64,000 bases of DNA from Candidatus Latescibacterota bacterium (GCA_036336855.1 JAYZFI010000014.1:44734-108733), one strand, 5' to 3'; shown: positions 35,787-53,912, counted from the first letter of the stretch. Translations and numbers: made by a program. Notes: generated by a model from the letters alone, not told the origin.

Positions 35787-36932
35787 CTATATATAACCGG
35801 TAGAGCCATCCGGGCGAACCGGACAGGTGCGTTGCCAATGAATGTACTCGTTGTCGGTGATCGCATCCTCGTTGATTTCGATGCCGAGACCTGGTCGATC
35901 GACTCGGAGCTCTAGGTAGCCGTCTTTGGGCATATAGGGCTCATCAACCCAGTTGTTCCATTCGGTGTCGGTCGGTAGGAGGTATTCGAGGATCTTGAAA
36001 TTGCAGGTCGATGCGGCGAAGTGGACGTTCACTGCAGTCGCAAGGGGACCCATGGGGTTATGAGGAGCGACACTGACGTAATGGGCTTCCGCGATGTGGG
36101 CGATCTTCTTCATCTCCAGCAGACCGCCGCAGATACAGACGTCAGGTTGTACAATGTCGGCTCCATTGCTAGCGATGAGATTGAGAAACTCGAAGCGGCC
36201 ATACAGACTCTCGCCCGTGGCCAGGGGGACGCGCATCTGCTCACGCAGTCGCGACCACTGCGGAATGTGCTCAGGTCGTAGCGGCTCCTCGTAAAACAAT
36301 GGATCGTAGGGCGCCAAGGCATCAGACAGCTGGAGGGCGCGAATGGGTTCAAAGATCTTGGCGTGGGGGTCGAAGGCAAATTCCCACTCTCCTGGAGTGT
36401 TGAGACGCAGCTCTTCGAAGTATTTCGCCGCCGCGGAGCAAACACGACCCCAGCGATCGGAGTCCGGATCGAGCTGGTATGGGCTTGTCTTGAAAGCGGT
36501 GAAGCCCCAATCCTCGTGGAGCCGACGCGCCTGATCTGCTGCCTCTTTGCCGTCGCGCCCCCCGATGCCGCGGTAAACGCGAATGCGATCCCGGGCATTC
36601 CCGCCCAGCAACATGTACACCGGGAGTCCCGCCGCTTTGCCGGTGATGTCCCACAGGGCGTGATCGAGAGCGGATATGGCGGGCAGCCCCACGCCTCCAG
36701 GCGGGAAGCGAAACTGCTGATGCAGCTTCATCATGATGTATTCGATGCGCCGAGGATCCTCACCTTGAATCATCTCGAAGAGGTAGTCGGCGATGGGCTC
36801 CACTGAAAGGTCAGGACCAGTGGAGTAGGCCTCGCCCCAACCATGGATGCCCTCATCAGTCTCAACCTTCAGAAGGGCCCGGGGGCGATTGCCGAAGCGA
36901 GCGACGAACGTTTTAATCGCGGTAATCTTCAT
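35787..36932 (-). CDS. enolase-superfamily sugar-acid dehydratase (D-galactonate/D-mannonate dehydratase-like)
   Basis: Start trimmed to MKITAIKTFVARFG, 5 nt after the GH88 stop. Barrel metal ligands and conserved His (...WGEAYS..., ...LLEMKKIAHIAEAHY...). Confidence 0.8.
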   Translation of the reverse strand: MKITAIKTFVARFGNRPRALLKVETDEGIHGWGEAYSTGPDLSVEPIADYLFEMIQGEDPRRIEYIMMKLHQQFRFPPGGVGLPAISALDHALWDITGKAAGLPVYMLLGGNARDRIRVYRGIGGRDGKEAADQARRLHEDWGFTAFKTSPYQLDPDSDRWGRVCSAAAKYFEELRLNTPGEWEFAFDPHAKIFEPIRALQLSDALAPYDPLFYEEPLRPEHIPQWSRLREQMRVPLATGESLYGRFEFLNLIASNGADIVQPDVCICGGLLEMKKIAHIAEAHYVSVAPHNPMGPLATAVNVHFAASTCNFKILEYLLPTDTEWNNWVDEPYMPKDGYLELRVDRPGLGIEINEDAITDNEYIHWQRTCPVRPDGSTGYI

Positions 36933-36937
36933 GATCG

Positions 36938-38311
36938 TTAACCAAAGAATGTCGGATACGGTTCGCCCAAGGCCTCGCGGCGGATCAGCAGAACCAGCTC
37001 CATGGTGTGATAGTCGCCCCACATGGCGGACTCTCCGCAAGGGATCTTGCGGCCGCGGGGGGTGTGATCCCAACCGTTGGGACGGTGGTAGATGGCATGC
37101 AGGGTGAGCCCCTGATGGCGCGCTGTCGTAGAAAGGTAGGGCTCTGTGAGCAGCGCGGCGGCAATGGTGAAGGCTGCGGCGCGGTAGCGACGACCCCGGG
37201 TGAGGTCACCTTTATCAACAAAGTAGTTGCCCAGTCTCAAGTAACCTTGGGCGCAGATAGCGGCGGCCGACGAGTCTAGGGGTTCGACGTCATTGTAGGG
37301 ATCAGACGTAGACCGCGAATAATCGCCAAAAGACGCGACGCTCGGTGCGCCCGTGTCCCAAAAGGGGACGCCGTCGGCAAAGCTGTGATGAATGTGGAAG
37401 TCGGCGGTGGCAACGGCGGCTTTCTCCATCATGGCCAGGAGTGGGAGGCGCTTTGCGTGGGGTTCGAGATCGGAGCTCTTCAGTTTTCGGATGAATTCCA
37501 GCTGCTCGGCGTAGCCGCATAGAATCCAGCTCAACCCCCTTGTCCAAGTGGAGAACGGCGAGTAGCCCTGTTGGGTGCTGGGGCAGCGATAGTTGCCGTC
37601 GTTGGCATTGAAGATGGATTCATGGACGACGCGGCCGGGCCGGTCGTAAGCATCGCGACCTTCTCCGTAGTAGACGTTGAAATTCGCTGTCGTCGTGGTG
37701 TGCTCGATGGCGCGACCGAGCAACGAGATCGGTTGATCTCCTTCGCCCATGAGCACGTGGCCGAGCTGGTGGGCAAGGTACAGGATGCGCAGAGTGCGAA
37801 TGGTATCGGAAAACAGGGAATGGGACCCGTTGAAGGAGTGGATGAAACCGCCTCCAGAGGCGATCTGTGTCCAGCGCGCAGCCTGAATCGCACCCGACAG
37901 TTTGATTGCCAGCTCGTAGAAGTCAAGCTCGGTTCGGTCCCCTGTGATACGCCCCTCGCGTATGAGACGGCGGAGGTTGCCGTACGTGGAAAGGTTATTG
38001 AAGCCGTGGTCGTGAACTCCGACGTGGGAAACATGTGGAGCCATGTTCCGAATGGTGTGACGGCGTCCGAGCTCGAGAAAGCTATCGTCGTCCGTCATGT
38101 CGTACTGGAGAATTGCGCATCCGTACTGAAACCCCTGAGTCCACTCCGTCCAGCCCCGGGTAGTGTAACGACCGTTGGTGGTGAAGACCGGAGTGCCGTA
38201 CTGCGGATTCCAAGTCGATTCCAGTGAACGGATCTTCTTGCCCGAGAGCTTGAGAAACCGATCGGTGGCGGGCAGGAGTTTCTTCGCAGTCTGGCGTTTG
38301 TCGATTTTCAC
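36938..38311 (-). CDS. glycoside hydrolase family 88 unsaturated glucuronyl/uronyl hydrolase
   Basis: 457 aa. Matches remembered Bacillus UGL signatures: HDHGF (UGL HDIGF catalytic Asp), STWTRGLSWILCGYA (UGL STWTRGQAWGIYGFA) and WGDYHTMELV (UGL WGDYYYLEAL). Confidence 0.65.
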   Translation of the reverse strand: MKIDKRQTAKKLLPATDRFLKLSGKKIRSLESTWNPQYGTPVFTTNGRYTTRGWTEWTQGFQYGCAILQYDMTDDDSFLELGRRHTIRNMAPHVSHVGVHDHGFNNLSTYGNLRRLIREGRITGDRTELDFYELAIKLSGAIQAARWTQIASGGGFIHSFNGSHSLFSDTIRTLRILYLAHQLGHVLMGEGDQPISLLGRAIEHTTTTANFNVYYGEGRDAYDRPGRVVHESIFNANDGNYRCPSTQQGYSPFSTWTRGLSWILCGYAEQLEFIRKLKSSDLEPHAKRLPLLAMMEKAAVATADFHIHHSFADGVPFWDTGAPSVASFGDYSRSTSDPYNDVEPLDSSAAAICAQGYLRLGNYFVDKGDLTRGRRYRAAAFTIAAALLTEPYLSTTARHQGLTLHAIYHRPNGWDHTPRGRKIPCGESAMWGDYHTMELVLLIRREALGEPYPTFFG

Positions 38312-38324
38312 TGTGCTCTCTTTG

Positions 38325-39650
38325 CTATTGATAGGACACGTTATAGATGGGCTTAATCCCTTCTGTCAACCACTGCGAGTGGGATTCCCTCATTCGGCGT
38401 AGCTGATCTGGGTAGACCTTTGCGACGTTGCGCTGTTCGCCGGAATCTTCGAAGAGATCGCTCAGGTGAACACCTTCTGGTGTAGCGGAAAGTTTCCACC
38501 TGCCCTGACGCACCGCCCAGTAAGAGCCCAGCATCCAGTGAAGAGCTTGGTGCGGACTGGGCGCGTCATCGATCAGCACGCCAGTGAGGTTTTTGCCGTC
38601 CACTGTTCCGGCCTGAATTCCGCAGAGTTGGCAGAGAGTAGGAAACCAGTCGAGGCCACTGGAGATCTGTTGGCGAATCTTGCCCGCTGGGAATCGCGCC
38701 GGCCACGAGGCGATGCAAGGCACGCGAATACCCCCCTCCCAAAGTGTGCCCTTGTGGCCGCGATGAGGACCTGACCACCCTCCTCCACTCCCAGCTGCTT
38801 CCTCCTCTGAATGGCCGTGATCGCTGAGGAAGATGACGATAGTCTTTTCGGTAAGAGACGCTTGGTCCACTGCATCCAGAATTTGGCCAATCTTGTCGTC
38901 CATGGACTGCACTGTAGCTGCGTAGGCGCGTCGATTCGCGGATGACAGGGACAGATTCTCATCCACAAAACGTTTCTCGGGCTGAAGGGGGTAGTGAGGC
39001 ATGTTGAAAGAGGCACAGAGAAAGAAGGGACGAGATCTGTTTCTCTCAACGAACTGACCGCACTCCCGCGCCAGGATGTCGGGGAAGAACACCCCGTCCT
39101 CACGATAAGGCTGCCGTTTCTTCCACAGCGCGTGCCTCGGAGCCCCTCCCCAGTAGTTGTAGTGCGAATAGTTGTCGATGGCCCCGACCAGGTGTCCGAG
39201 GAATTCATCGAAGCCCTGCGACAACGGATCCCAGTCGTCAAATCCACCGAGATGCCACTTGCCGAAAAACCCAGTGCGGTAGCCCCCAGCGCGAAAGGTT
39301 TCCGCGATGGTGGTCTCGTCAGGGGCAATTCCCTTGCCGGGAACGAGGCAGCGCTGGAAGTGGCGGCCCGTCATCAGGCCCGCCCTCGAGGCTGTGCACA
39401 GAGGGGCGGGCGCGTAGAAGCTGGTTAAGCGTACTCCGCGGCGCGCCAAATCGTCCAAATGCGGTGTCTTGAGATCGTCGGCCCCGAAGCAGCCGACGTC
39501 TCTACTTCCCAGATCATCTGCCACAATCAGCACGACGTTGGGCCGGACCGGGGCCTGCGCCCGTACGGCCGGAACCGCGAGGGCTGTCGCCCCCCAAGCC
39601 AATCTCTGAAGAGCTTGGCGCCTCGAGAGCACACGTGTGGATCCCGCCAT
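38325..39650 (-). CDS. formylglycine-dependent sulfatase, Tat-exported
   Basis: 441 aa. Twin-arginine signal (SRRQALQRLAWGATALAVPAVRAQA). Sulfatase N-terminus VVLIVADDLGSRD, FGly motif CTASRAGLMTGR (a C-x-A-x-R variant), GKWHLG. Confidence 0.9.
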   Translation of the reverse strand: MAGSTRVLSRRQALQRLAWGATALAVPAVRAQAPVRPNVVLIVADDLGSRDVGCFGADDLKTPHLDDLARRGVRLTSFYAPAPLCTASRAGLMTGRHFQRCLVPGKGIAPDETTIAETFRAGGYRTGFFGKWHLGGFDDWDPLSQGFDEFLGHLVGAIDNYSHYNYWGGAPRHALWKKRQPYREDGVFFPDILARECGQFVERNRSRPFFLCASFNMPHYPLQPEKRFVDENLSLSSANRRAYAATVQSMDDKIGQILDAVDQASLTEKTIVIFLSDHGHSEEEAAGSGGGWSGPHRGHKGTLWEGGIRVPCIASWPARFPAGKIRQQISSGLDWFPTLCQLCGIQAGTVDGKNLTGVLIDDAPSPHQALHWMLGSYWAVRQGRWKLSATPEGVHLSDLFEDSGEQRNVAKVYPDQLRRMRESHSQWLTEGIKPIYNVSYQ

Positions 39651-39653
39651 AGC

Positions 39654-40985
39654 CTACTGGTAGTCGACGGTATACACCGGCGTCATTCCCTTTGCAAGCC
39701 AACGCTGGTGGAGAGACTCGAGTCGCTCCACGACGTCGGGTCGACTGTTGAGCTGGTTGGTGCCTTCGCCCGGATCGGCTTGCAGGTCGCTGAGTATCTG
39801 TCCCGCGGGTTCGGTTATGAGCTTCCATCGTCCTTGGAGGACAGCCCAATGCGAGCCCACCATCCAATGCATGCTGGCGTGGGGACTGTCGGCATTAGCG
39901 GCAATGACGTCGGCAAGGTCACGGCCGTCGAAGGAAAACGAGGAAAGGGAGATGCCACAGTAGCCTGCCAGGGTCGGCAGGAGGTCCATACTTGATGCTA
40001 TCTGTTGGCGTACCTCACCACGCGGAAAGGTTCCCGGCCAGGAGATGAGGGCGGGAACCCGCAGGCCTCCCTCGAACAAAGTTTTCTTGTGGCCGCGAAA
40101 CACACCTGTCCACCCCCCGCCACTCTCGGCTGCCTGCTCTACGGAGTGGCCGTTGTCGCTTAGCAGAACAACGATAGTGTCACGCTCTATGCTTAGCTCT
40201 TGAACACGGTTGACGATCTGCCCCACTTTTTCGTCCAGGGAAGCGAGGACAGCTGCATAGCGTCTGCGGGCCGGATCCTGGATGTGATCGAAGGCTCCTG
40301 AGAACTCGGACTCCACCTGCAAGGGGTAGTGGGGCATGTTGAAAGAGGCACAGACAAAAAACGGCCGACCGACAGATTCGCCAATGAAGCGTATGGTCTC
40401 CTGGGTGACGATGTCCGGGAAGAACTTACCGGGGCGGTGCAGAGGTTGCTCGTTGTACCAGAGGTCGTGCTCCGGTGTTCCCGACCAATAGTGGTAGTGG
40501 GAGTAGTTGTCGATGGCACCTGTCTTGTGACCAATGAACTCGTCGAAGCCACGGTCGGTGGGAATCATCCCGGGCCTGCCTCCCAGGTGCCACTTGCCGA
40601 ACATCCCGGTTCGGTAGCCGGCGTCTCGAAAGACCTCCGCCATGGTCACGAATCTAGGATCGATTCCGTGCTCGGTGAGCACGCGCTGGAAGTAATGACC
40701 AGTAAATAGCGACGCCCTCGATGCCGAGCACAGGGGAGCGGCTACGTAGAACTGAGTGAAGCGCACCCCCGCACTCGCGAGTGCATCCATGTTGGGAGTA
40801 CGCAGGTCAGCGGCTCCGTAGCAACCCATGTCTAGCGTTCCCTGATCATCCGTAATGATCAGCAGCACGTTTGGGGACGGAGTTGCCATCGCTCCGGGCG
40901 CGATTCCACTGAAAGCAGCAGCAGCGCCTCCGCCGACTAGCGTGCGGAGGGCCTGACGGCGCGTGATCTCGGCTGAACCCGGCAA
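39654..40985 (-). CDS. formylglycine-dependent sulfatase, Tat-exported (tandem paralog)
   Basis: 443 aa, TTG start. Tat signal (TRRQALRTL...AMA). CSASRASLFTGH and GKWHLGG. C-terminus collinear with the neighbouring sulfatase. Confidence 0.9.
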   Translation of the reverse strand: MPGSAEITRRQALRTLVGGGAAAAFSGIAPGAMATPSPNVLLIITDDQGTLDMGCYGAADLRTPNMDALASAGVRFTQFYVAAPLCSASRASLFTGHYFQRVLTEHGIDPRFVTMAEVFRDAGYRTGMFGKWHLGGRPGMIPTDRGFDEFIGHKTGAIDNYSHYHYWSGTPEHDLWYNEQPLHRPGKFFPDIVTQETIRFIGESVGRPFFVCASFNMPHYPLQVESEFSGAFDHIQDPARRRYAAVLASLDEKVGQIVNRVQELSIERDTIVVLLSDNGHSVEQAAESGGGWTGVFRGHKKTLFEGGLRVPALISWPGTFPRGEVRQQIASSMDLLPTLAGYCGISLSSFSFDGRDLADVIAANADSPHASMHWMVGSHWAVLQGRWKLITEPAGQILSDLQADPGEGTNQLNSRPDVVERLESLHQRWLAKGMTPVYTVDYQ

Positions 40986-41115
40986 TTGACTTCGTTAGGA
41001 GGGAATTAGAAGGGCGGCAAAGATACGCGACCCTGCTCTCGGGTCAATCAGCCTGGGTACAACAACAGTGACGCCCTAGGTTCTTCCACTTCACCGAGCC
41101 CGTACGGAGAGGAAC
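40986..41115. promoter_or_regulatory. divergent intergenic control region between the two operon arms of the sulfatase/GT-C locus
   Basis: 130-bp gap between divergently oriented sulfatase genes. Contains direct repeat TAGGAGGG-aat-TAGAAGGG and the palindrome CAATTG. GGAGAGG SD sits before the plus-strand ATG at 41116. Confidence 0.3.
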
Positions 41116-42618
41116 ATGACGACGGCCAATAGGCCCAACCTCATTTTTATCATCACCGACCAACAGCGTGCAGATACGATCCGCGCCTGGGGCCATTCCC
41201 ACATGGTGACACCGGCCATGGACAAGTTGTGCAAGGATGGGCGCTCTTTCCGGCAGGCGTTTTGCCCGGGAGCGACCTGCGTCGCCTCCCGCGCTGCTAT
41301 CTTCACCGGCATGTACCCGCACACGACGGGAGTGTACAGCTTCGATGCCTGGGCGGGGCATCGAAGCTGGGTGGAAGATCTCGCCGACGCCGGCTATCGC
41401 TGCATTAACATTGGCAAGATGCACATCACTCCACAGAGCGAGAACGGAGGATTCCATGAGCGGATCATCGTCGAAAATCCGACCAATAAGGAATTGATCA
41501 ACGGTGGCGCCGACGACGATTGGGGGCGTTACCTGACTCATCACGGTGAGTCCAGACCCAACGACCGCCACGAAACTGATTCCGACTGGATCGACAAGGT
41601 GCAAGGCGTGCCGTGGCATCTGGAGGAGCGTTTCCACAGCGATGTGTTCATTGGCGACGCGGCAGTTTCGTGGATCCGTAGTCATCGGGGCGACGACCCG
41701 CTGTTTCTCCAGATCGGGTTCGCCGGACCCCACGAGCCCTGGGACCCACTACCGCGACATCTCGAGCTCTACCACGGAGTGCAGCTACCTGATCCGGTCT
41801 TTCGGGAGAGCGAGCTCGACAGCAAGCCGCCGCAGCACCAAGCGCATCACCGCACTCATGCCGAGGCCGATCACGAATCCCGGATCGACGTCCAGAATAC
41901 GTCCCCGGAGCAGATCGATCACATGCGTCGCCACTATTATGCGAAGATCACCACCGTCGATGAGCAGATCGGCCGAGTGTTGGAAGCACTGGACGAGCGC
42001 GGCTGGAGGGACAACAGCCTCCTCGTGTTCTGCTCTGATCACGGCGAGCTGCTGGGAGATCACAACCTCGCGTACAAATGGCTGATGTACGATGCCATCA
42101 CTCGAGTTCCCCTCGTCGTTTGTGATCGTCGCGAGGGTGCGGATTCGCAAGGCGGCGGCGTCTGCGACGAACTGGTCTCCCTGATCGATCTGGGACCGAC
42201 CTTTCTCGAAGCAGCGGGGATCGACCGGCCGGATTATCTGGAGGGGTGTTCTCTGCTGCCCTGCTCGAACAGCGGTAGATACTCCCGAGATCGCGTGTAT
42301 GCGGAAGACAACTACCAAATCATGATGCGCACCCACGATCTCAAGATCGTGTATTACATCGGCCAGGAGCTTGGCGAGCTCTACAACCTGAGTGAGGATC
42401 CAGACGAGCTTTGGAATCTTTGGGAAGACCCGGCGCATCGAGAGACGCGCGATCGCCTGCTACGGGAGTTGCTCGACTGGTTGGCATCGAGCACATACTG
42501 GAACGCAGGTTATCGCCGCGACCGCAGCGCGAACTACCGGATGCGCTGGCCCGCCCCGGATGACCCCTACCTCCATGGGCGCTACTCGCGACCACGGAAG
42601 AGGCAGGCTGATCTGTGA
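41116..42618 (+). CDS. formylglycine-dependent sulfatase, no signal peptide (predicted cytoplasmic)
   Basis: 500 aa. Starts directly with the sulfatase fold (NLIFIITDQQRAD). FGly motif CVASRAAIFTGM, GKMHI. No N-terminal hydrophobic segment. Stop overlaps the start of the next gene. Confidence 0.9.
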   Translation: MTTANRPNLIFIITDQQRADTIRAWGHSHMVTPAMDKLCKDGRSFRQAFCPGATCVASRAAIFTGMYPHTTGVYSFDAWAGHRSWVEDLADAGYRCINIGKMHITPQSENGGFHERIIVENPTNKELINGGADDDWGRYLTHHGESRPNDRHETDSDWIDKVQGVPWHLEERFHSDVFIGDAAVSWIRSHRGDDPLFLQIGFAGPHEPWDPLPRHLELYHGVQLPDPVFRESELDSKPPQHQAHHRTHAEADHESRIDVQNTSPEQIDHMRRHYYAKITTVDEQIGRVLEALDERGWRDNSLLVFCSDHGELLGDHNLAYKWLMYDAITRVPLVVCDRREGADSQGGGVCDELVSLIDLGPTFLEAAGIDRPDYLEGCSLLPCSNSGRYSRDRVYAEDNYQIMMRTHDLKIVYYIGQELGELYNLSEDPDELWNLWEDPAHRETRDRLLRELLDWLASSTYWNAGYRRDRSANYRMRWPAPDDPYLHGRYSRPRKRQADL

Positions 42619-45056
42619 AAGCCACCCGGATCCTGCTGCTCGTCATCATAGTGGCAGGGTTCTCACTGCGTGCAGCAGGCTTCACTCGCGGCGACACGGA
42701 TTTCGTACTGCCAGAGGATCGCGCGAAGGGATACGAATCGTCGTTCCACAGCTTTCATCCCGATGAGCTAACGCTGATCGAGTCGGCGTTGCGACCAATC
42801 GACCTCCTTAATCCTCCGTTCACGGTCTACGGAGCGCTCCCGGTGTACATGCTACGTGGCGTGCTGCTCACGGTCAGCGCCATCGGCGGATGGAACAAGT
42901 TAGAGTTGGAGACACCGGATTCAAGGCGTCGGATCTACTTTACAACACGCGCCGTCGCTCTGCTGTTCAGTCTAGGCGTATTGGCGCTGACGGCGATGAT
43001 CGCGCGTCGGTTGGCCGGTGAGTGGGGGGCATTGGTTGCTGTGTTCGCCGTCGCTTTTGCCCCCGGGGCGATTCAGCAAGCCCACTATTACATCGTTGAC
43101 GGGTTGTTCAGTCTTACATCGCTGGCGACTGTCTGGGCCATCTCTACTGTTCGCCGGGATGATCGTTGGGGGCGCTTCTGTGTTATCGGCGTCATGATCG
43201 CCATCACCATGGCGATCCGACAGAACGGCGGTCTTCTCGGTCTGTTACTCTTTGTCCAACTTGCGATTCAGGAATCATCGCCCGTGTGGCGGCAAACGAT
43301 AGCCACGATACGCTTTCGAGGCTTGTGGATAGCGGCCGGGGTCTCAGCCCTGCTATTTCTCTGTATGCATCCGTTCGTGCTTATTCGGCCGGAGATCCAA
43401 ATCGCGAAAACCGGCTATGGCAGCTTCGGCAGCGCCCTCGACACGGCCAGCCTGGCGCTGCTGCAGCCCTGGACCTTGGCGGATGTGCACACGAGCGCAT
43501 TCATCGACCACTGGTTTGGGATGATGCCCGATGTTACCGGTTGGCCCTTGACAATCGTGTTCCCTGCCACACTGGTCTGGGCCTTGTGGAAGGGGGGACC
43601 CACGGCCCGAATCATCGCCGTTTGGTGTGTTCTTTACTTCTTACCTATCGGTTTTCTCAAGGCGCGTGCAGTGCGGCACACAATCCCGCTGCTGGCACCG
43701 CTAGCGATCCTGCTGGCACTCGCTGCCCGCCATCTGTGGCCCACCATGTCCAAGAAGATCAGCATCGCGGCCATCGGTGCGGCAGCTCATTTGGTGGTAT
43801 TCGGTTGTGCTTTTACTCGGATTTATACAATTGAGGACAGCAGGCTGCAGGCGGCCAGATGGCTACAGGCGAACGCGCCGCCTGGCTCTCGAATCGGTGT
43901 CGAGGGCGGAGCGTACACGATGTCACGCTTAGTCAGCAATCGCGAGCACCAAACGCGGGGTCTGGAAACGCCGTGGGTGTTTTACTCTGGGCCTTTCATG
44001 CTGTGCGAAGATCGCGCACGTTTACTCCTTCGTCGCCTGTTGCCAACAGATTATGTTGCCGTAGTAGATGCCAATCGGCACCTCCAATACCACAAAGTTC
44101 CCGAGATCTATCCGGTAGTTGCTGATTTCTACAACCGTCTTCTCGCAGGACAATTAGGTTACGATGTAGTAGCGATCTACAAAGTGGAACCGAGGTTAGC
44201 GGGGGTACACTTTGACGAGACGTCGGCGGAGCCTTCCTACCTGGGCTACGATCACCCCACCGTATACTTGTTGCAACGGAGGTCACAGCCACTGCTTGCC
44301 GCCAATCTGTGGGCGAATGAGGTATCTATCGGGCCGCACTGTCCCGACGAGTCTTTGAGACGACTCAGTCGTAGGCTGGTAGCGGGCGATTTCGAAGCGG
44401 TGATCTCGGAGATGCCAGAGCATCAAGCAGCATATCCCTGGAACCTGCTCGGCGATCGTCTCGAGGCTGAGGCGGGGTGGCGACAAAGCCCAAAGGGAGA
44501 CCGCCCGCCCTTCACCCCCGGTGAAACCGGCGGACGACTACAGCACGTGCGCAACCCGGCGATGGTCCATCTTTCCTATGCCTCCGCTGCAACCTCGGTT
44601 GCACGACTTGGCCTGCCGGGGTTGGCCGTTGCCACTCTCAAGGACGGCGTTGGGACCCGGACCTTGCGCTCTCGTGACTTGGTCACACAGGCGGAATCTT
44701 ATATGGAGACCGCCATCATTCTTGGCGAACTGGGTCATGATGAGGAAGAGGTGCAAGCCGCGCGACTTTCTCTGGAAGTCACGCCCACTACTGCTGTGGT
44801 AAACGCACTGGCGGGTATCGCTGCCAGGCGTGACGACAGCGAGGCGGTTCGTCGGCATCTGGAGCACTCGCTTTTACTTGACGCGAAGCAAGCGGACGTT
44901 CACGTCGGTTTGGCCGAGGTCTACCTGAAATCGATGAACAACCCGGAAACCGCGCTGCGGCATGTCGAGATCGCCCTTGGCATCGATTCCGGGCTCGCGG
45001 AAGAGGCGGAGCCGCTGCGAGCCCGAGCCCTGCAGGAGTTGGGTAGCGGTCCTTGA
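42615..45056 (+). CDS. ArnT/PMT-like GT-C membrane glycosyltransferase with C-terminal TPR domain (paralog 2)
   Basis: 813 aa. TM-rich N-terminal two-thirds with FHSFHPDE loop motif. C-terminal TPR-like helices (VHVGLAEVYLKSMNNPETALRHVEIAL). GTGA/ATGA overlaps on both sides. Confidence 0.7.
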   Translation: MKATRILLLVIIVAGFSLRAAGFTRGDTDFVLPEDRAKGYESSFHSFHPDELTLIESALRPIDLLNPPFTVYGALPVYMLRGVLLTVSAIGGWNKLELETPDSRRRIYFTTRAVALLFSLGVLALTAMIARRLAGEWGALVAVFAVAFAPGAIQQAHYYIVDGLFSLTSLATVWAISTVRRDDRWGRFCVIGVMIAITMAIRQNGGLLGLLLFVQLAIQESSPVWRQTIATIRFRGLWIAAGVSALLFLCMHPFVLIRPEIQIAKTGYGSFGSALDTASLALLQPWTLADVHTSAFIDHWFGMMPDVTGWPLTIVFPATLVWALWKGGPTARIIAVWCVLYFLPIGFLKARAVRHTIPLLAPLAILLALAARHLWPTMSKKISIAAIGAAAHLVVFGCAFTRIYTIEDSRLQAARWLQANAPPGSRIGVEGGAYTMSRLVSNREHQTRGLETPWVFYSGPFMLCEDRARLLLRRLLPTDYVAVVDANRHLQYHKVPEIYPVVADFYNRLLAGQLGYDVVAIYKVEPRLAGVHFDETSAEPSYLGYDHPTVYLLQRRSQPLLAANLWANEVSIGPHCPDESLRRLSRRLVAGDFEAVISEMPEHQAAYPWNLLGDRLEAEAGWRQSPKGDRPPFTPGETGGRLQHVRNPAMVHLSYASAATSVARLGLPGLAVATLKDGVGTRTLRSRDLVTQAESYMETAIILGELGHDEEEVQAARLSLEVTPTTAVVNALAGIAARRDDSEAVRRHLEHSLLLDAKQADVHVGLAEVYLKSMNNPETALRHVEIALGIDSGLAEEAEPLRARALQELGSGP

Positions 45057-47545
45057 GTTCACACTGGCGCCTGGCTCTGCTCAGTGTCCTGCTCCTTGCC
45101 ACGGGTCTTCGCCTGGTCGGCTGGCAGCGAGGCGATACGGATTTTCTCAAGCCCGAGCAGGCGAGAAGCGGTCTGCAGCGCGCTTTCCACTCTTTCCATC
45201 CTGACGAGAACACTCTAATCAGAGCGGGGGCGCAGATGAGCTCCCCTCTCGATCCTCCACTCACCGCGTACGGCCTTCTGCCAATCTACCTCTCGCGCAT
45301 GGCGACCGATCTTGGCGGCTGGCTCACCGGCGTGTCCAGCTACACAGGCAGTCTTGAAAGCCATCGTCAGGATGTGTTTTCCGTCAGGCTGCTGTCGGTC
45401 GCTGTCTCCATCGCGGCGCTACTCGCGCTCTATACCATTGGCCGACGACACTTTGGTGCACCGTCGGGTGTTCTGGCAACTGCACTCGCCGCAGCGCCCC
45501 CCCTCTTCCTACAGACCGCCCACTTTTACACAGTCGATGGGGTTTTTGCGTTACTCTGCCTGGCAACGATCGGATCCGTCCTGCGAGTCGATGAGCGCTC
45601 TGGGCCCCTCTGCTACACACTAACAGGTGTTCTCGTGGGTCTGACAGCGGCTGTTCGGCTCAACGGCCTGTCTCTGGGAATCCTTCTCGTGGCGACGCAC
45701 CTATGCCGGCGCACCCCTAACTCGCGGGCATTCGGCCGCGCCTTGTTGCAGCCGTCGCTTTGGCTTGCCGGAGCTGCCACCGTTGTGACCTTGCTTGCGT
45801 TGATGCCGTATGTCGCCGTCAGCCCCGAGCTGTTGTGGCAAGAGAACAACACCAACGACTTCAGTTATTCCGTAGGCGTGGCGGATGGACGGATCTTGCG
45901 GCCATGGTCCCTGGCAGACACACACACACCGCCATATCTGCACTACCTGACCAATCTTCTTCCGCTCAGCGTTGGATGGCCGCTGGCTATTGCTTTCATC
46001 GTGGCTCTGCCATCAGCTGTGGCGACAGGAGGTCGGAGTCGCTGGTTGCTGCTGGCGGCAACGGCGTTACTGTTCGTGCCTGTCGGGGCGTTACACACAA
46101 AGCACGTCCGTTATCTGCTGCCGGTATTGGCTCCTCTCACACTCTTGACTGCCGATATGTTTGTACGTCTGCAGACGGGACAGGTAGCTATCCGGCGTCT
46201 GACAGCCAGAGTGTTGCTGATCGGCGTTCTCTCTGCAACCCTCGTGGAGGGAATCGCCTTCGCGCACATCTACACCGTTGAGGATGCCCGTCTACAAGCG
46301 GCCCGCTGGATTCAGGGGGAAGTGCCGTGGGGGACTCCCATCGGTGTCGAAACGGGCGGCTTTTCCATGAGGGGACAGGTGAGCGAGGAGGTCTACCCCG
46401 TACGGACACTGAACACGAGCTCGATCTTCTCCACACGCGGACATCTAACCTGTCAATCCGTGGCATCCTACATGGGAGCACGATTGCAGTCTGCACAGTA
46501 CGTTGCTCTCCTTGACGTCAATCGCTATCAGCAGTACGTGGGAGCGCCGGTGATCTATCCTGGACTGGCACGGTTTTATCGGGACTTTATCGCCGGAGAG
46601 CTGGGGTTTTCACTGGTGCGCACATACAAGCGCAATCCTCAGTTGCTTGGTCTCAAGATGAGCGACGATGGTGCCGAAGCTTCCTTCCTCGGCTACGATC
46701 ATCCCAGAGTGCGGATCATGGCTAAGGATCCAGGCTTCGAAGCTCGGTTTGTGGCCTGGGAGGGCGCCCTTCCCTCGCACGAACATTGTGGAGACGAAGT
46801 CGTCTTCGATCTCGTTCACCACATCAAGAGCGGATCCTATGAAGAAGGTTTGCGGCTGGCCCTGCAAAATTCAGCGCGTCACCCGCAGAGCCTCATCACA
46901 TTCATAACCGCCCATCTGTACGGTCTGCTCGGTGAGACGGAGCTGCAACAGCAATTCCTAGATCGATGGGCTGACACCTACACGGACAAATCCCTGAGCG
47001 CGTTCCTGCTACCCTGGGCGAATTCCAGTTCTCTTGTCTTGGCCGGTCTACCAGAACTCGGCGTACAGGCATTGAGATTCGGGTGGCGAAAAAGGGGCGC
47101 GTTCTCGGACGACAAGGCGAACATGGCTGCCTCGTACAGGCATGTTAGTGAGCTCTTGCTGAGTGTGGAAGAGGGTACCCTCGCTGAAGAGGCGACTCTG
47201 ATGGCGCTCGATATCAATCCTAGCGTCGAAGGTTATAACCGAGCTGCGGAAATGCTACTGTCTCGGGGAGAATACGGGCACGCGGTGGCTCTCTGGGAAA
47301 GATCTCTTCAGGATCAGGAGCAGATCGGAGTCCGGTGGCAGCTGGGCAGAACTGCGGAGGAGCGGGGCGACTGGGAGCGCGCTGTTCGTCACTTGCTCCA
47401 TGCCGTATTCCTAGACGATCAGATATCGTCAGACCGTCGAACTCTTGAGCTCGATAGGCTCACGCGTATCGCTGAGCACAATGGCCTAGCCGATCTGGCG
47501 CGAAAAGTCCGAGCGCAGCACGAGTCCAGGCAGGCACCCCTGTAA
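45053..47545 (+). CDS. ArnT/PMT-like GT-C membrane glycosyltransferase with C-terminal TPR domain (paralog 3)
   Basis: 830 aa, TTG start overlapping the preceding stop. Collinear with paralog 2 (GWQRGDTDF, FHSFHPDE, YTVDG, IYTVEDARLQAARW). TPR tail. Confidence 0.7.
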   Translation: MSSHWRLALLSVLLLATGLRLVGWQRGDTDFLKPEQARSGLQRAFHSFHPDENTLIRAGAQMSSPLDPPLTAYGLLPIYLSRMATDLGGWLTGVSSYTGSLESHRQDVFSVRLLSVAVSIAALLALYTIGRRHFGAPSGVLATALAAAPPLFLQTAHFYTVDGVFALLCLATIGSVLRVDERSGPLCYTLTGVLVGLTAAVRLNGLSLGILLVATHLCRRTPNSRAFGRALLQPSLWLAGAATVVTLLALMPYVAVSPELLWQENNTNDFSYSVGVADGRILRPWSLADTHTPPYLHYLTNLLPLSVGWPLAIAFIVALPSAVATGGRSRWLLLAATALLFVPVGALHTKHVRYLLPVLAPLTLLTADMFVRLQTGQVAIRRLTARVLLIGVLSATLVEGIAFAHIYTVEDARLQAARWIQGEVPWGTPIGVETGGFSMRGQVSEEVYPVRTLNTSSIFSTRGHLTCQSVASYMGARLQSAQYVALLDVNRYQQYVGAPVIYPGLARFYRDFIAGELGFSLVRTYKRNPQLLGLKMSDDGAEASFLGYDHPRVRIMAKDPGFEARFVAWEGALPSHEHCGDEVVFDLVHHIKSGSYEEGLRLALQNSARHPQSLITFITAHLYGLLGETELQQQFLDRWADTYTDKSLSAFLLPWANSSSLVLAGLPELGVQALRFGWRKRGAFSDDKANMAASYRHVSELLLSVEEGTLAEEATLMALDINPSVEGYNRAAEMLLSRGEYGHAVALWERSLQDQEQIGVRWQLGRTAEERGDWERAVRHLLHAVFLDDQISSDRRTLELDRLTRIAEHNGLADLARKVRAQHESRQAPL

Positions 47546-47607
47546 CGGTTCTTGACGCTCAACAAACACCCAGTATTTCGTACAGGCACTGTACAACGGA
47601 GACCCCG

Positions 47608-49254
47608 ATGAATGGAGCCGACACCTTCACTGCCGCCCTGCGTGCCCACGATGTCGAGTGGGTCAGCACGTTGTGCGGCCATGGGCTCAACGAAGTGTAC
47701 GCCGCTTGCGAGCGCACCGGATTGCGCATAGTCGATACGCGCAATGAACAGACGGCCTCGTATATGGCAGAGTGCTGGGGCCGGCTCAGCGGCAAAGTCG
47801 GCGTCTGCGCAGTGAGCAGTGGCGTCGCTCATGCCAACGCACTGAGTGGCATCGCCAACGCCTACTTCGATGGCGCTCCCATGTTGCTGGTGACCGGCAG
47901 TGGTCCGCTCTCCACGGCGGGCAAGGGTCACTTCCAAGATTTCGACCAAGTGGCACTGGTGCAGTCGGTCTGCAAGTACGCCCGCACCATCGACGTGGCC
48001 GAGCGTATTCCGGAGATCGTACACGAGGCCATGGCGACGGCGGTGAGTGGTCGCCCCGGGCCCGTGCACTTAACCTTCCCCACGGATATGCAGGAACAGA
48101 TGGTGGCGGACTCCACGCCTCCCTCACCGCAGCCCGATAAGGCTCGGCCGATCCTGCCGTCGGATGATGCCGTTCGGCAGGCGGCGCGCTTGTTGGCGCG
48201 CAGTGAACGTCCCCTAATGATCACCGGGAGCGGCGTGTTCTACGCCTCGGCGGGAAAGGCCGTCGCGGACTTTGCGGCTGCGTACGCCGTGCCGTTTGCC
48301 ATTCCCATCTGGGATCGGGGTTGTGTGGCTCAGCCCCTGCCGGAATACCTCGGCGTCGTGGGCGCCGCAAGTGGCGGACCGCGTCTGCTGGAGGACGCAG
48401 ATTTAATCTTGCTGCTGGGAGCCGCTGCGGACTACCGAGTAAGCTACATGCAGGCGCCAGCCATCGACGTGCAGACCCAAGTCATTCGTGTCGATGTCGA
48501 TCCCGATCGCCTACACCATATGGGTCGGGCCACTCTCTCCGTGCTGGCTGATCCCGCCATGTTCCTGCAGCGTCTCATCGACGTGTGCGCGAAGGAACAG
48601 ATCGAAGGTTTCGAAGACTGGCTGCACGAAACGCAAAGGCGCAAGGAGGAGTTCAGTGCGGCGATCCGAACCAGCGGCCATGGCGGGTTGGATGCGCTCC
48701 AGCTGTGCGCGGCTTTGGACGAAGCACTGCCCGAGGACGCCGTCGTCGTAATCGACGGCGGTAACATTGGCCAGTGGGTGCATCAGACGTTGGGCCGGGC
48801 CCGATATCCGGAATCCTGGCTCACCTGTGGCGCCAGTGGCGTCGTCGGCTACGGGATCGCAGGGGCCATGGCTGCACGGGCTGGCTTCCCCCAGCGTCCT
48901 GTGGTTGTCATCTCCGGGGACGGCTCGGCGACTTTCAACCTCACCGACCTCGAACGCGCTGTTCGGCAGCAGCTGCCCTTCGTGATGATTGTGGCCGACG
49001 ACGAGGCCTGGGGGATCACAGTCTCCGGCCATCGCCAACACTACGGCAAGGCGATGAGCAGCGAACTCGGCCCCGTGGACTTCGCCGCCGCCGCTGAGGC
49101 TTTCGGTGCCATCGGCGCCCGCGTGGAGAGCTGCGAGGAGCTGATCCCGGCTGTTCGCCGTGGAGTCGCTGAGAGTCGTCCCGTTGTCATCCATGTGCGA
49201 ATTCCCGGCGGCATGCCGGGTGAGCAGGGCGCACACTCGGAGGCGTTGACATGA
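47608..49254 (+). CDS. thiamine-diphosphate-dependent enzyme (acetolactate-synthase / 2-ketoacid decarboxylase-like)
   Basis: 548 aa. N-terminal Pyr domain (VSTLCGHGLNEVY..., TRNEQTASYMA), central domain, C-terminal PP domain with the ThDP motif GDGS...N (ISGDGSATFNLTDLERAV). Confidence 0.85.
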   Translation: MNGADTFTAALRAHDVEWVSTLCGHGLNEVYAACERTGLRIVDTRNEQTASYMAECWGRLSGKVGVCAVSSGVAHANALSGIANAYFDGAPMLLVTGSGPLSTAGKGHFQDFDQVALVQSVCKYARTIDVAERIPEIVHEAMATAVSGRPGPVHLTFPTDMQEQMVADSTPPSPQPDKARPILPSDDAVRQAARLLARSERPLMITGSGVFYASAGKAVADFAAAYAVPFAIPIWDRGCVAQPLPEYLGVVGAASGGPRLLEDADLILLLGAAADYRVSYMQAPAIDVQTQVIRVDVDPDRLHHMGRATLSVLADPAMFLQRLIDVCAKEQIEGFEDWLHETQRRKEEFSAAIRTSGHGGLDALQLCAALDEALPEDAVVVIDGGNIGQWVHQTLGRARYPESWLTCGASGVVGYGIAGAMAARAGFPQRPVVVISGDGSATFNLTDLERAVRQQLPFVMIVADDEAWGITVSGHRQHYGKAMSSELGPVDFAAAAEAFGAIGARVESCEELIPAVRRGVAESRPVVIHVRIPGGMPGEQGAHSEALT

Positions 49255-50231
49255 ATCTCCCTTCTGAGGACTTCGAGTCTGTCCCCCATACTCGGCTGCA
49301 CGACTTCGTCGTGTCCGCCACTACTGAGGTGGGATTGCCGGAGGTACGTGCCCGGCTACTGGCGGACATGCTCATCGGCAACGATCTGCGCGGCGTGTTC
49401 AGCCACGGCACTGTGCAGGTGGCGACCTACGCCATCTTGATGCGGGATGGGACCTTGAATCCCCAGCCCGCTATCAGCGTGGTGCAGGAGACGGACGTGA
49501 GCGTGCTCATCGATGGCGATGGAGGCTTGGGTTACTTCCCCGCCCACGAGGGCACGCAACGCGCCATCCTAAAGGCTAAGGAGCGCGGCATGGCGGTCAT
49601 GATGACCCGTAATCACGGTCACTTCGGTGCCGCCGGACTGTACTCCAGGATGACCCCGGAACACAACTTGATTACCTATGTAACCTCCGGGGTGCAGTTG
49701 CACCTGAAGCCAGGAGACAAGATTTACTCTGCCGCCGGCGGGTCCCCCATGTCCTTTAGCACTCCCGCCGGCGAGGAAGCGCCACTGGTGCTCGACTTCG
49801 GGACTATGCATGACCTCTACGCCAGCAGTCCCCATCGGGACGAGATCGCACGCCTCGCTCCCGGTTTGGTGCTGCGCTGCATTGGCATGGGTGAAATCTG
49901 CCAGGCTTGGGGAGGCCTGTTGTCCGGCCTGACTTTGCACGCCGATCCCCCGCGGTGGGAGTGGCCGGGGGCGAACCAGGGCTCGATGGTCATAACCTTC
50001 CGCATCGACCTGTTCCACGACCCGACGCAGTTCCGGCAGCAGATGGACGAATACGTGCGCGCCGTAAGTGAGCTGGACCCCCTTGAGGGTTTTGAGCAAT
50101 CCTATGTGGCCGGCGGCGTCGAAGCCGATCGCGAGGTGCGATTCCGGGAGGAGGGCGTTCCCGTGGGCGTTGAGCACCGAAAGGCGCTGGAGGGATTGGC
50201 GAGCCAGCTCGGTATCGACGCACCTTTTTGA
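49251..50231 (+). CDS. Ldh_2-family (malate/L-sulfolactate/ureidoglycolate dehydrogenase-type) 2-hydroxyacid dehydrogenase
   Basis: 326 aa. ATGA overlap with the ThDP enzyme. Ldh_2 signatures (GNDLRGVFSHGTVQV, NHGHFGAAG). Confidence 0.8.
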   Translation: MNLPSEDFESVPHTRLHDFVVSATTEVGLPEVRARLLADMLIGNDLRGVFSHGTVQVATYAILMRDGTLNPQPAISVVQETDVSVLIDGDGGLGYFPAHEGTQRAILKAKERGMAVMMTRNHGHFGAAGLYSRMTPEHNLITYVTSGVQLHLKPGDKIYSAAGGSPMSFSTPAGEEAPLVLDFGTMHDLYASSPHRDEIARLAPGLVLRCIGMGEICQAWGGLLSGLTLHADPPRWEWPGANQGSMVITFRIDLFHDPTQFRQQMDEYVRAVSELDPLEGFEQSYVAGGVEADREVRFREEGVPVGVEHRKALEGLASQLGIDAPF

Positions 50232-50260
50232 TTCGATATCCGTCATTCAGAGGCGATCCA

Positions 50261-50422
50261 ATGTTGGTAGGTATCTCTCCGCTGTTGAGCCCGGATCTGC
50301 TGTCCATTCTCTGTCGAATGGGTCACGGTGATGCGACCGTGCTCGCCGGCGCCCATTTCCCCGGAGAGACAGCGAAGCACGGTAATATTAATCTGAAGAA
50401 GGGAGTGTCCCAGGTATCATGA
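50261..50422 (+). pseudogene. internally deleted remnant of L-fucose mutarotase (FucU/RbsD family)
   Basis: 53-aa ORF. N-terminal 35 aa (MLVGISPLLSPDLLSILCRMGHGDATVLAGAHFP) match FucU (E. coli [34 protein letters not shown]). C-terminal GETAKHGNINLKKGV matches the FucU C-terminus GERAKYGNILLKKGV. The roughly 85 central residues are missing in frame. Stop overlaps the start of the next gene (ATGA). Confidence 0.5.
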
Positions 50423-51441
50423 GCCAGATCTATGAGCCCGTGGCTGTACCGCGAGCGGACCGTTACCGAGTCTCGGTGGCGGACTATAAGAGCTATCAAG
50501 AGAACGGTTTCATAGTGGTAAAGGGCTTGGTGCCGGAGGCGGAGCACGCCGAGTTGCGGCAGCACGCCATTGACATCTTCGACGGCAAGACGCCGGTAGA
50601 AGGGGTGGAGTCGCCTGATCCGCAGGCGACGCCCCAGGAGCGGCAGGTGCGCATGACCCGAGTGCATATGCTGCACCGCGTTGACGCCCTGAGCGAGCGA
50701 TTCCTACTACACCCCCGGGTGCTCGACGTACTGGAAATCCTCATCGGTCCCGACGTGCTGGCGTTGCAGACCATGATGTTCTTCAACGCGCCCGGATCGG
50801 GAGGTCAGGGCTGGCACCAGGACGCTTACTACATCACCACTTACCCGGAAACCCTCATCGGCGCTTGGTTGGCCCTAGAACGGGCCGACGAGGGCAACGG
50901 CTGTTTGTGGGTGGCGCCGGGTTCGCACAAGGAGCCGATCCATCCCGATGCGGGCCGGGGTGCTCTGGTGCACACCAAAGGGGGATTCTCCGACGCCGAT
51001 CTCGTCACCGGGATTAGCGATCTTGACGATGAAGTGAACACTCTGTCTCGAGTCGCCCGCCAGCATGAGCCCAACATGCCGGTGGAGGTGCACGCCGGAG
51101 ATGTCATCTTCTTCCACTCTCACCTGTTGCACCGCTCGCATCCCAACCCATCTGACGCGCGATGGCGCCGAGCTTTCGTCTCCCACTACTGCAACGCCCG
51201 TTCGTGGGTGCCGTGGAACCACGGTGCCTCCTTCGAGGGGGACGCCGCCAACTACCTGCACATATTGGCGCGAGGCGCGACACAACTGCCTTTTGCCAAG
51301 CCGCGATTCGACACCCCCTGCGCCGCGCTCGAGGATTGGGAACCGACCGGACCCCAGCAGGTAGTTGCCAGCGGCGGCGACATGGAGATGCTGCCGGCGG
51401 GGACATCGGTATCGTTGGGTGAGGAGGGCCGGGTCGAGTGA
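50419..51441 (+). CDS. phytanoyl-CoA dioxygenase (PhyH) family Fe(II)/2OG oxygenase
   Basis: 340 aa. Strong SD AAGGGAG upstream. PhyH pattern (YQENGFIVVKGLV, WHQDAYY, HSHLLHRSHPN). Confidence 0.8.
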   Translation: MSQIYEPVAVPRADRYRVSVADYKSYQENGFIVVKGLVPEAEHAELRQHAIDIFDGKTPVEGVESPDPQATPQERQVRMTRVHMLHRVDALSERFLLHPRVLDVLEILIGPDVLALQTMMFFNAPGSGGQGWHQDAYYITTYPETLIGAWLALERADEGNGCLWVAPGSHKEPIHPDAGRGALVHTKGGFSDADLVTGISDLDDEVNTLSRVARQHEPNMPVEVHAGDVIFFHSHLLHRSHPNPSDARWRRAFVSHYCNARSWVPWNHGASFEGDAANYLHILARGATQLPFAKPRFDTPCAALEDWEPTGPQQVVASGGDMEMLPAGTSVSLGEEGRVE

Positions 51442-52803: not shown

Positions 52804-52830
52804 GCTCAGATCTTCTCCTGCTCACTCCTG

Positions 52831-53886: not shown

Positions 53887-53912
53887 GGAGGGAGTGCCTC
53901 CGATCCGGGCGG

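Follow-up and report, generated by a model that had tools for sequence, protein, structure and literature searches.

In a 64,000-nucleotide (nt) stretch of DNA from a Candidatus Latescibacterota bacterium (GCA_036336855.1 JAYZFI010000014.1:44734-108733), referred to here as the window, three genes that we call A, B and C encode proteins of about 800 amino acids (aa), in which a GT-C-like membrane core is predicted to be combined with a tail of tetratricopeptide repeats (TPRs). Related designs are known from several systems. ArnT, the undecaprenyl-phosphate-L-Ara4N:lipid A transferase, is encoded in the arnBCADTEF operon, and in mycobacteria the embCAB operon holds tandem paralogous GT-C genes, with EmbA and EmbB forming a heterodimer and EmbC a homodimer. 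ArnT has 13 transmembrane (TM) helices (PDB 5ezm/5f15), and PDB 7bvf is cited for the Emb proteins in PMC7801869. TfpW, the pilin D-arabinofuranosyl transferase of Pseudomonas aeruginosa, is a 646-aa GT-C protein predicted to cross the membrane 11 times from a cytoplasmic N-terminus; it carries an acidic motif (DDX) in periplasmic loop 1 and ends in a TPR domain in the periplasm. Its best templates are ArnT for the core and the O-GlcNAc transferase (OGT) for the TPR domain. The tfpW gene is located directly downstream of pilA, and the D-Araf donor pathway involves DprE1/DprE2. In eukaryotes, TMTC1-4 are cadherin O-mannosyltransferases, and full-length GT-C plus TPR homologues of TMTC were reported in many prokaryotes (Eisenhaber and colleagues, 2021). 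Beyond TfpW and the TMTC analysis, the literature that we searched held no relevant characterised bacterial GT39/PMT_2 protein with TPRs and nothing relevant on Latescibacterota glycosylation.

An initial annotation of the window, which read A, B and C as TMTC-like transferases, overrated their novelty: TfpW has been studied, the prokaryotic TMTC homologues have been on record since 2021, and at NCBI B and C already bear the name ‘glycosyltransferase family 39 protein’ (A is named ‘tetratricopeptide repeat protein’). The outcome of our analysis is a sound refinement of that annotation rather than a discovery. What it contributes is a three-part architecture, the mapping of four active-site positions, a gene pair that is old and coupled, and a candidate donor operon. 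We suggest that A, B and C are active, inverting, lipid-phosphate-sugar-dependent GT-C(A) enzymes of the ArnT/PMT_2 superfamily, and we give this explanation as a whole, including the mechanism described below, a probability of about 0.6. Its parts differ in strength: the enzyme class is near-certain, a partnership of A, B and C with a nearby GT2 glycosyltransferase has about even odds, and a protein acceptor has somewhat less than even odds.

Membrane core, active site and C-terminal domains

The three open reading frames (ORFs) are present as first described, with their motifs as quoted (Table 1). All three proteins score above the gathering threshold (26.1 bits) of Pfam PMT_2 (PF13231; ArnT-like), with 33.8 bits for A, 32.5 for B and 41.0 for C, and these sequence matches are far beyond chance. 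In each protein an HPDE motif is located ~25-50 residues from the N-terminus, right behind the hydrophobic first helix, which together with the PMT_2 scores bears out a GT-C-like membrane core with HPDE in its first loop. The motif is invariant in 27 of 27 sequences of the B/C family, whose alignment contains 45 invariant columns, all retained by C. Its H, D and E show conservation of 90% or more in the A family, and D28/E29 are invariant when the family is aligned with ArnT-like relatives.

A profile of A and these ArnT-like relatives matches by sequence Pmt1 (7e-12), Pmt4 (8e-8), ArnT (7e-6), STT3, AglB and DPY19, and it is only by this route that a sequence link to ArnT and PMT is seen. A single-sequence search of the B/C family against PDB sequences gave no significant GT-C match and weak TPR matches alone; the best GT-C match of its TM-core profile, against the same sequences, was ALG12 at a non-significant E of 0.01. 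The alignment with ArnT, which is printed in SEQRES numbering with an inferred offset of +3 from the published numbering, places HPDE and three further positions on ArnT residues (Table 1), and all four positions are invariant in the 27-sequence B/C alignment. In ArnT, D55/E56 form the active-site pair and correspond to D77/E78 of Pmt1 and to the DD motif of TMTC, D158 and K203 (loops 2 and 3) are ligands of the sugar or the acceptor, and the loop-5 ligand of the lipid phosphate is Y345, in place of an Arg in oligosaccharyltransferases (PMC7801869). The likeness of HPDE to the ArnT PDE and PMT DE motifs of loop 1, proposed in the initial annotation, is therefore confirmed by alignment, and its acidic pair can be presumed to be catalytic. 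The conserved loop-5 Arg-Tyr and the nearby DPMS/GtrB/ArnC-like GT2 are indirect signs that the donor may be a polyprenyl-phosphate-linked sugar.

The AlphaFold2 model of B, based on 27 homologues, has a pLDDT of 87.8 and a pTM of 0.83. Its membrane part shows the polytopic fold common to ArnT, PMT, STT3/PglB/AglB and the ALG enzymes; it matches the structures of ALG12, ArnT, Pmt4, STT3/AglB and PglB, with which Foldseek agrees, and ArnT is among the two best structural matches of the model. The tail matches the TPR superhelix of OGT. Model and Foldseek thus both give a GT-C membrane fold for B.

Family-averaged hydropathy together with the Lys/Arg bias fits 11 TM helices with the N-terminus inside and the C-terminus outside, and settled a TM count that was muddled in a single-sequence Kyte-Doolittle scan. 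Every motif falls on an outside loop, and the HPDE loop, the C-terminal domains and the TPR tail are all predicted to be extracytoplasmic. A reading of B with 12 TM helices was rejected, as it would split HPDE and the TPR tail onto opposite sides of the membrane; helix 75-91 is for this reason taken as an interfacial helix of loop 1 rather than a TM helix.

The description of a GT-C core followed by TPRs was incomplete, since it overlooked a GT-C-type α/β globular domain of ~150 aa that separates the repeats (from ~560 in B) from the end of the last membrane helix (~405). Its invariant residues in B are D408, R410, E430, G432, C464, N487-R488 and G544-x-D546-H547-P548. C464 forms an invariant Cys pair in the soluble part of B with C576, at the start of the repeat region, and this pair is compatible with a periplasmic disulfide. 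A phmmer search with residues 1-575 of B yielded 2138 cluster representatives at E<=1e-3 (816 at <=1e-10 and 94 at <=1e-30), many of which are proteins of 550-600 aa that contain the core and the middle domain without TPRs. These relatives indicate that the conserved catalytic unit is the core plus the α/β domain, and that the TPR tail is an accessory.

As for the tail itself, which had been ascribed to all three proteins, it is plain from the sequence of A (TPR_2, 62 bits). By the ordinary Pfam threshold the claim fails for B, in which no TPR is detected, and for C, which is sub-threshold; in these two it holds solely through the predicted structure and the B/C-family profile, whose last ~190 positions match consensus TPR proteins at ~1e-13 per repeat pair. 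On this basis the GT-C plus TPR reading is correct for A, B and C. Weak NCBIfam matches of the A tail to BcsC and PgaA indicate TPR and nothing more.

Gene relationships and neighbourhood

The mechanical ORF of A (30314-32728, 804 aa) starts at a GTG that overlaps the TGA of the upstream enolase-superfamily gene, and NCBI places the start at ATG 30323. The NCBI starts of B and C agree with those used here, and TTG 45053 is the sole in-frame start upstream of the first membrane helix of C. With the same starts at NCBI and like junctions in relatives, the translational coupling of B and C that was read from their overlap stands, and the sulfatase upstream of B is indeed signal-less, its Sulfatase domain beginning at residue 7. 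A and C are identical to entries P0032 and P0022, and no copy of the A/B/C family beyond these three was found within the window.

The three genes had been described as a triplication, a misleading term. Over their full length B and C share 31% identity (E 1e-108). By BLASTP A has no significant match to B and is 33% identical to C over 184 aa; by hhalign the A family and the B/C family align with a probability of 100 and an E of 1e-52 over 697 columns at 16% identity, and this alignment covers the membrane core, the middle domain and the tail and keeps HPDE in register. B and C are true paralogues from one old duplication, and A is a distant relative from a different subfamily with the same three-part design. 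The TPR tail is where B and C differ most (22% identity, vs 32% for the core and 42% for the α/β domain).

The survey of the B/C family, in which one genome per species was scanned, gave 66 loci, cited here by their L numbers. Nearly all are in metagenome-assembled genomes (MAGs) labelled Latescibacterota or Gemmatimonadota, with one Handelsmanbacteria and one Planctomycetota MAG in addition; these labels are unverified and the labelled taxa may be related. Genomes that carry such genes often have 2-5 loci. A B-type gene is directly followed by a C-type gene in about 10 of the 66 loci. In a crude neighbour-joining tree the first genes of the pairs group in a single clade that excludes the second genes, which argues that the B-then-C pair is an old duplication; the tandem pairs of L002 and L061 are separate, younger duplications. 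Among 12 tandem pairs from other genomes, 7 have an NTGA overlap at the junction, and in most of the others 1-27 nt separate the two genes. A-family genes likewise stand in tandem in L006 (5308-10541; 888 and 846 aa) and L007 (8001-13203; 874 and 858 aa), where the GT2-adjacent methyltransferase is doubled too, so that at least three and probably four TPR-tailed GT-Cs are located around one GT2 operon there.

When the window is compared with the L001, L006 and L007 MAGs, the GT-C-TPR proteins are 36-45% identical and the neighbouring gene products 58-90% (aconitase 83%, enolase-like protein 88-90%, GT2 66-69%). A, B and C thus evolve much faster than their neighbours. This divergence, strongest in the TPR tail, is typical of, and points to, surface- or partner-facing proteins.

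The region 35787-42618 holds a gene set for the catabolism of a sulfated uronate polysaccharide. Downstream of C, the genes for a thiamine-diphosphate (TPP) enzyme and an Ldh_2-family dehydrogenase may be part of the B-C transcript; a scan of 40800-50500 for promoters and terminators gave nothing above the shuffled expectation. An Ldh_2 or TPP enzyme gene is also located 3' of B-C or of C alone in L008, L010, L017, L033, L046 and L047. In ~15 loci, among them some in MAGs labelled Latescibacterota, Gemmatimonadota and Handelsmanbacteria, a GH88-like hydrolase and a sulfatase are encoded upstream, and an Ldh_2 or TPP enzyme downstream, of B-C or of a solitary C.

Further along the window, on the minus strand (51907-55064), a thioredoxin+TPR_20 gene (51907-52803), an alanine-racemase-N/D-serine-dehydratase-like gene (52831-53886) and a GT4 glycosyltransferase gene (53913-55064) form a trio that is also located downstream of B-C in L001. 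A Wzx-like MOP flippase (Polysacc_synt_3, 165 bits) is encoded at 7608-9053 (minus strand), at a distance of over 20 kb from the GT-C genes, and an LpoB-like lipoprotein at 4696-5343 (plus strand); the two fit a diderm envelope and lipid-linked glycan export. The plus-strand ORFs 2425-3801, 3847-4680 and 59583-61343 (458, 277 and 586 aa) have no Pfam match at E<=1e-5.

Table 1. Coordinates and mapped residues of the features discussed (nt positions in the window, unless residues or loops are given)
Feature	Position	Strand	Description
Gene A	30323-32728	+	801 aa from ATG 30323; NCBI MEE2657479.1; GT-C core, α/β domain and strong TPR array
HPDE of A	30398-30409	+	H26-P27-D28-E29 (numbered from ATG 30323); context LVPHPDE
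Isochorismatase-family cysteine hydrolase	32739-33275	-	Isochorismatase 94.9 bits; last gene of GT2 operon; 4-nt overlap with GT2; convergent with A; synteny conserved
GT2 glycosyltransferase	33272-34015	-	Likely polyprenyl-phosphate sugar synthase; Glycos_transf_2 107 bits
S-adenosylmethionine-dependent methyltransferase	34009-34764	-	Methyltransf_11; GT2 operon; adjoins GT2 in L001, L006, L007
Short-chain dehydrogenase/reductase (SDR)-type sugar epimerase/dehydratase (HpnA-like)	34737-35753	-	Epimerase 90.9 bits; HpnA 73 bits, below cut-off; synteny conserved
Enolase-superfamily dehydratase	35787-37073		
GH88-like unsaturated glucuronyl hydrolase	36938-38311		PDB 1vd5, 1e-10
Two sulfatases	38325-39650, 39654-40985	-	Tat-type RRQAL signals
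Signal-less (cytoplasmic) sulfatase	41116-42618	+	Sulfatase 149.5 bits from residue 7; N-terminus MTTANRPNLIFIITDQQ; formylglycine motif CVASR at residue 55; first of sulfatase-B-C run
GTGA overlap	42615-42618	+	B start codon on stop codon of signal-less sulfatase
Gene B	42615-45056	+	813-aa GT-C glycosyltransferase; NCBI MEE2657489.1
B membrane core	aa 1-405, nt 42615-43829	+	~11 TM helices
HPDE of B	42756-42767	+	H48-P49-D50-E51, first extracytoplasmic loop; presumed catalytic Asp/Glu pair; context FHSFHPDE
B periplasmic α/β domain (predicted)	aa 406-558, nt 43830-44288	+	
B TPR-like helical repeat tail	aa 559-813, nt 44289-45053	+	
B inside (predicted)	N-terminus; loops 130-137, 177-188, 217-238, 322-333, 372-382		Loops Lys/Arg-rich
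B outside (predicted)	Loop 1 (21-110), long loop 255-305, loop 349-356, entire C-terminal part		Interfacial helices in loop 1
TTGA overlap	45053-45056	+	C start codon (TTG) on B stop (TGA); translational coupling
Gene C	45053-47545	+	830-aa B paralogue, same three-part architecture; NCBI MEE2657490.1
HPDE of C	45197-45208	+	H49-P50-D51-E52; context FHSFHPDE
TPP enzyme	47608-49254		Follows C after 63-nt gap, no terminator-like site
Ldh_2-family dehydrogenase	49251-50231		ATGA overlap with TPP enzyme gene
HPDE	Loop 1		Aligned with ArnT G-P-D55-E56-G-R58-Y59 (A-profile/ArnT alignment)
Conserved Asp before TM4 (A D165, B D162; D of ‘SHFxxTD’)	Loop 2		Aligned with ArnT D158
A K205 (B R202)	Loop 3		Aligned with ArnT K203
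R-Y of ‘RYxLP’ (B R354-H355, C R-Y)	Loop 5		Aligned with ArnT G-Y345

Sugar donor, acceptor and alternative explanations

The GT2 gene had been proposed to make the lipid-linked donor, and as to its family this is well founded, as the protein most resembles polyprenyl-phosphate sugar synthases. Its best solved relatives are DPMS (5mlz, 4e-15), GtrB (5ekp, 1.6e-13) and ArnC. The NCBIfam models that match it over nearly the full length are PgfS, AglJ, Dol-P-hexose transferase and PpgS, each with a score far short of the cut-off (PgfS 82 vs 500 bits). The mechanical start is TTG 34054; the true one is probably GTG 34015 or TTG 34012, ~14 codons downstream, since the homologues are 238 aa long and begin at the equivalent position, and with this shift the apparent overlap with the methyltransferase gene is gone. 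By analogy with the Arn pathway, the SDR, the methyltransferase and the cysteine hydrolase could tailor the sugar.

The order aconitase / enolase-like / A(A') / [isochorismatase-GT2-methyltransferase-SDR-enolase-GH88-like-sulfatase, other strand] / (sulfatase)-B-C / Ldh_2 is found in L001, L006 and L007 and, compacted, in L021. In L013 (5219-8166) and L043 (2481-5764) a 241-aa GT2 homologue (76-82 bits) is encoded immediately upstream of a GT-C gene on the same strand. These GT-C genes belong to a different clade of the B/C family (P0021-like) and have otherwise unrelated surroundings; no other independent evidence speaks as strongly for a partnership of synthase and transferase as this arrangement. 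One donor that serves several acceptor specificities, as the initial annotation suggested, is plausible.

In the mechanism that we propose, the SDR/methyltransferase/GT2/cysteine hydrolase operon would make a modified sugar in the cytoplasm and load it onto polyprenyl phosphate. The lipid-linked sugar would then be flipped across the membrane, and A, B and C would transfer it to acceptors at the periplasmic face. Each enzyme would have ~11 membrane helices and a cytoplasmic N-terminus, and an active site built from extracytoplasmic loops: the loop-1 HPDE, the Asp at the start of TM4 (D162 in B), the basic residue of loop 3 (R202 in B, K205 in A) and the Arg-Tyr/His of loop 5 (R354-H355 in B). 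The periplasmic part would consist of the α/β domain followed by 5-7 TPR-like hairpins. The acceptor or a partner may be chosen by the fast-diverging TPR tails; as with TfpW, TMTC and PMT, proteins are the most likely choice. B and C, anciently duplicated and coupled, may act side by side or as a heteromer.

Several points weigh against this explanation. No characterised protein is reachable by sequence similarity, and the HPDE part of the ArnT alignment alone gives 7.5 bits, though it is in register with the remainder. The topology of A, B and C is a prediction. About 40 of the 66 family loci are singletons without a nearby GT2, in unrelated contexts, and the L002 tandem pair also lacks a GT2; the genomes with full synteny are fairly close relatives (aconitase 83%), so that their gene order may reflect descent. 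B-C lies within a set of sulfated-polysaccharide catabolic genes and is conserved along with them, which the model leaves unexplained; for this co-location, inherited gene order is an equally good explanation as glycosylation of exported enzymes, which is speculation. In addition, periplasmic TPRs scaffold polysaccharide export in BcsC, PgaA, PelB and AlgK, and a TPR domain is hence no proof of a protein acceptor.

One tentative option is that the same enzymes modify an envelope glycan or lipid (lipid A or the core of lipopolysaccharide (LPS), an exopolysaccharide or a glycolipid), as ArnT, Emb/Aft and Rv3779 do, with the TPR tail docking to export or assembly machinery. The high rank of ArnT among the structural matches of B and the ArnT-type character of the PMT_2 family speak for such an acceptor, as do the TPR-less relatives, in view of which the tail is an add-on, and a set of SDR, GT2 and hydrolase that is reminiscent of the ArnA/ArnC/ArnD logic. 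However, the characterised TPR-tailed GT-Cs, TfpW and TMTC1-4, modify proteins, and none of A, B and C is flanked by genes for LPS, lipid A or export. An envelope acceptor is possible, and we consider it on the unlikely side.

It is unlikely that B and C form an obligate heterodimer, like Pmt1-Pmt2/POMT1-POMT2 or EmbA-EmbB, in which the coupling gives equal amounts of the subunits. Such a pair would fit the old B-then-C order in at least 10 species-level genomes, the overlapping or closely spaced junctions of most pairs, the retention of all catalytic positions in both proteins, and the independent tandem duplications in L002, L061 and the A family (L006, L007). Yet C-type genes stand alone after a sulfatase in L017, L025, L040, L058 and L067, most family members are singletons, and the tree behind the old pair is crude. 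It is on account of the solitary C-type genes that an obligate heterodimer is not our main explanation.

Our explanation can also be extended, in a form that we find rather doubtful, to a dedicated periplasmic protein-glycosylation system of Latescibacterota and their relatives, in which B and C act as a Pmt1/Pmt2-like heteromer alongside A, the TPR tails pick different clients, perhaps exported sulfatases, and the GT2-methyltransferase-SDR-hydrolase operon provides an unusual methylated or otherwise modified sugar.

The surroundings of B-C raise another hypothesis, namely that the pair serves sulfated-polysaccharide utilisation, for example by glycosylating and stabilising Tat-exported sulfatases or other periplasmic or surface proteins. 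The GH88-like/sulfatase and Ldh_2/TPP genes that flank ~15 loci are in line with it, as are the overlap of the B start with the sulfatase stop and the two neighbouring sulfatases with Tat-type signals. All of this evidence is positional, the flanked taxa may be related under MAG labels that are unverified, many family members are located elsewhere and there is no precedent, which makes this role improbable. The fast evolution of A, B and C might suggest that one or more of them are relics without activity or scaffolds without a catalytic role, but this is very improbable in view of the intact motif residues in all three, the invariant columns across the B/C family, the full-length ORFs and the confident model of B.

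If the lipid-linked transferase explanation is true, Latescibacterota, an uncultured phylum, would have a defined pathway of lipid-linked glycosylation in the periplasm, with three or four transferases guided by their TPRs. In the B/C family one would then have a tractable bacterial model of how TPRs steer GT-C enzymes, a question that is open for human TMTC1-4, whose mutation leads to hearing loss and malformation of the brain. That B-C is so steadily located beside sulfated-polysaccharide catabolic genes also hints that glycan foraging is connected with the glycosylation of the envelope or of proteins.

Comparison with known systems

By its published description TfpW shares with A, B and C the inside N-terminus, 11 TM helices, the loop-1 acidic motif and the periplasmic TPR domain, and its two templates, ArnT and OGT, also match the B model. 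It differs in its size and motif (646 aa and DDX vs ~800 aa and HPDE) and in the extra α/β domain that precedes the TPRs here, and the comparisons made detected no relationship to it by sequence. No pilin or DprE-like gene is present among the annotated neighbours, and the genes directly upstream encode a sulfatase (B) and an enolase-like protein (A).

With TMTC1-4, A, B and C have in common a GT-C(A) core followed by luminal or extracytoplasmic TPRs, several paralogues per genome, and equivalents of the loop-1 acidic pair, the loop-2 Asp, the loop-3 Lys and the loop-5 Arg/Tyr. They are not members of the TMTC family: DUF1736, the TMTC signature, has no Pfam match in A, B or C at E<=0.1, the acidic pair is DE instead of DD, and ~150 aa of α/β domain separate the core from the TPRs. 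Dolichyl-phosphate mannose is an unlikely donor for A, B and C.

ArnT differs in its 13 TM helices (vs ~11), the lack of a TPR tail, the DEGRYAE motif, of which only P-D-E is shared, and its lipid A acceptor; the NCBIfam ArnT model has no match to A, B or C at E<=0.1, and no arnA/B/D/E/F gene was found among their neighbours. In contrast to the PMT/GT39 enzymes (Pmt1-Pmt2, Pmt4), A, B and C have neither a MIR domain nor PMT_4TMC. Pfam PMT (PF02366) is matched by A alone, at a sub-threshold 21.1 bits (cut-off 22.7), and the NCBI label ‘family 39’ reflects the generic PMT_2 model.

Modules that combine a GT2 with GT-C proteins, such as ArnC/ArnT, GtrB/GtrC, PpgS/Rv3779 and PgfS-PgfM1-PgfE-PgfM2 of Streptococcus mutans, resemble the locus in having a short GT2, an SDR epimerase and at least two GT-C proteins in one neighbourhood. 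Here, however, the genes are in separate convergent or divergent transcription units, the GT2 is far below the equivalog cut-offs and no flippase gene was identified nearby. The embCAB proteins belong to the GT53 subfamily and carry carbohydrate-binding modules, whereas A, B and C carry TPRs, and the pairing of B with C is a candidate.

A, B and C thus belong to the PMT_2/ArnT-like superfamily but lack the features by which ArnT proper, PMT/GT39 and TMTC are defined. They are best described as a Latescibacterota-centred subfamily of bacterial TPR-tailed GT-Cs, distinguished by HPDE, the retained α/β domain and the recurrent coupled pair.

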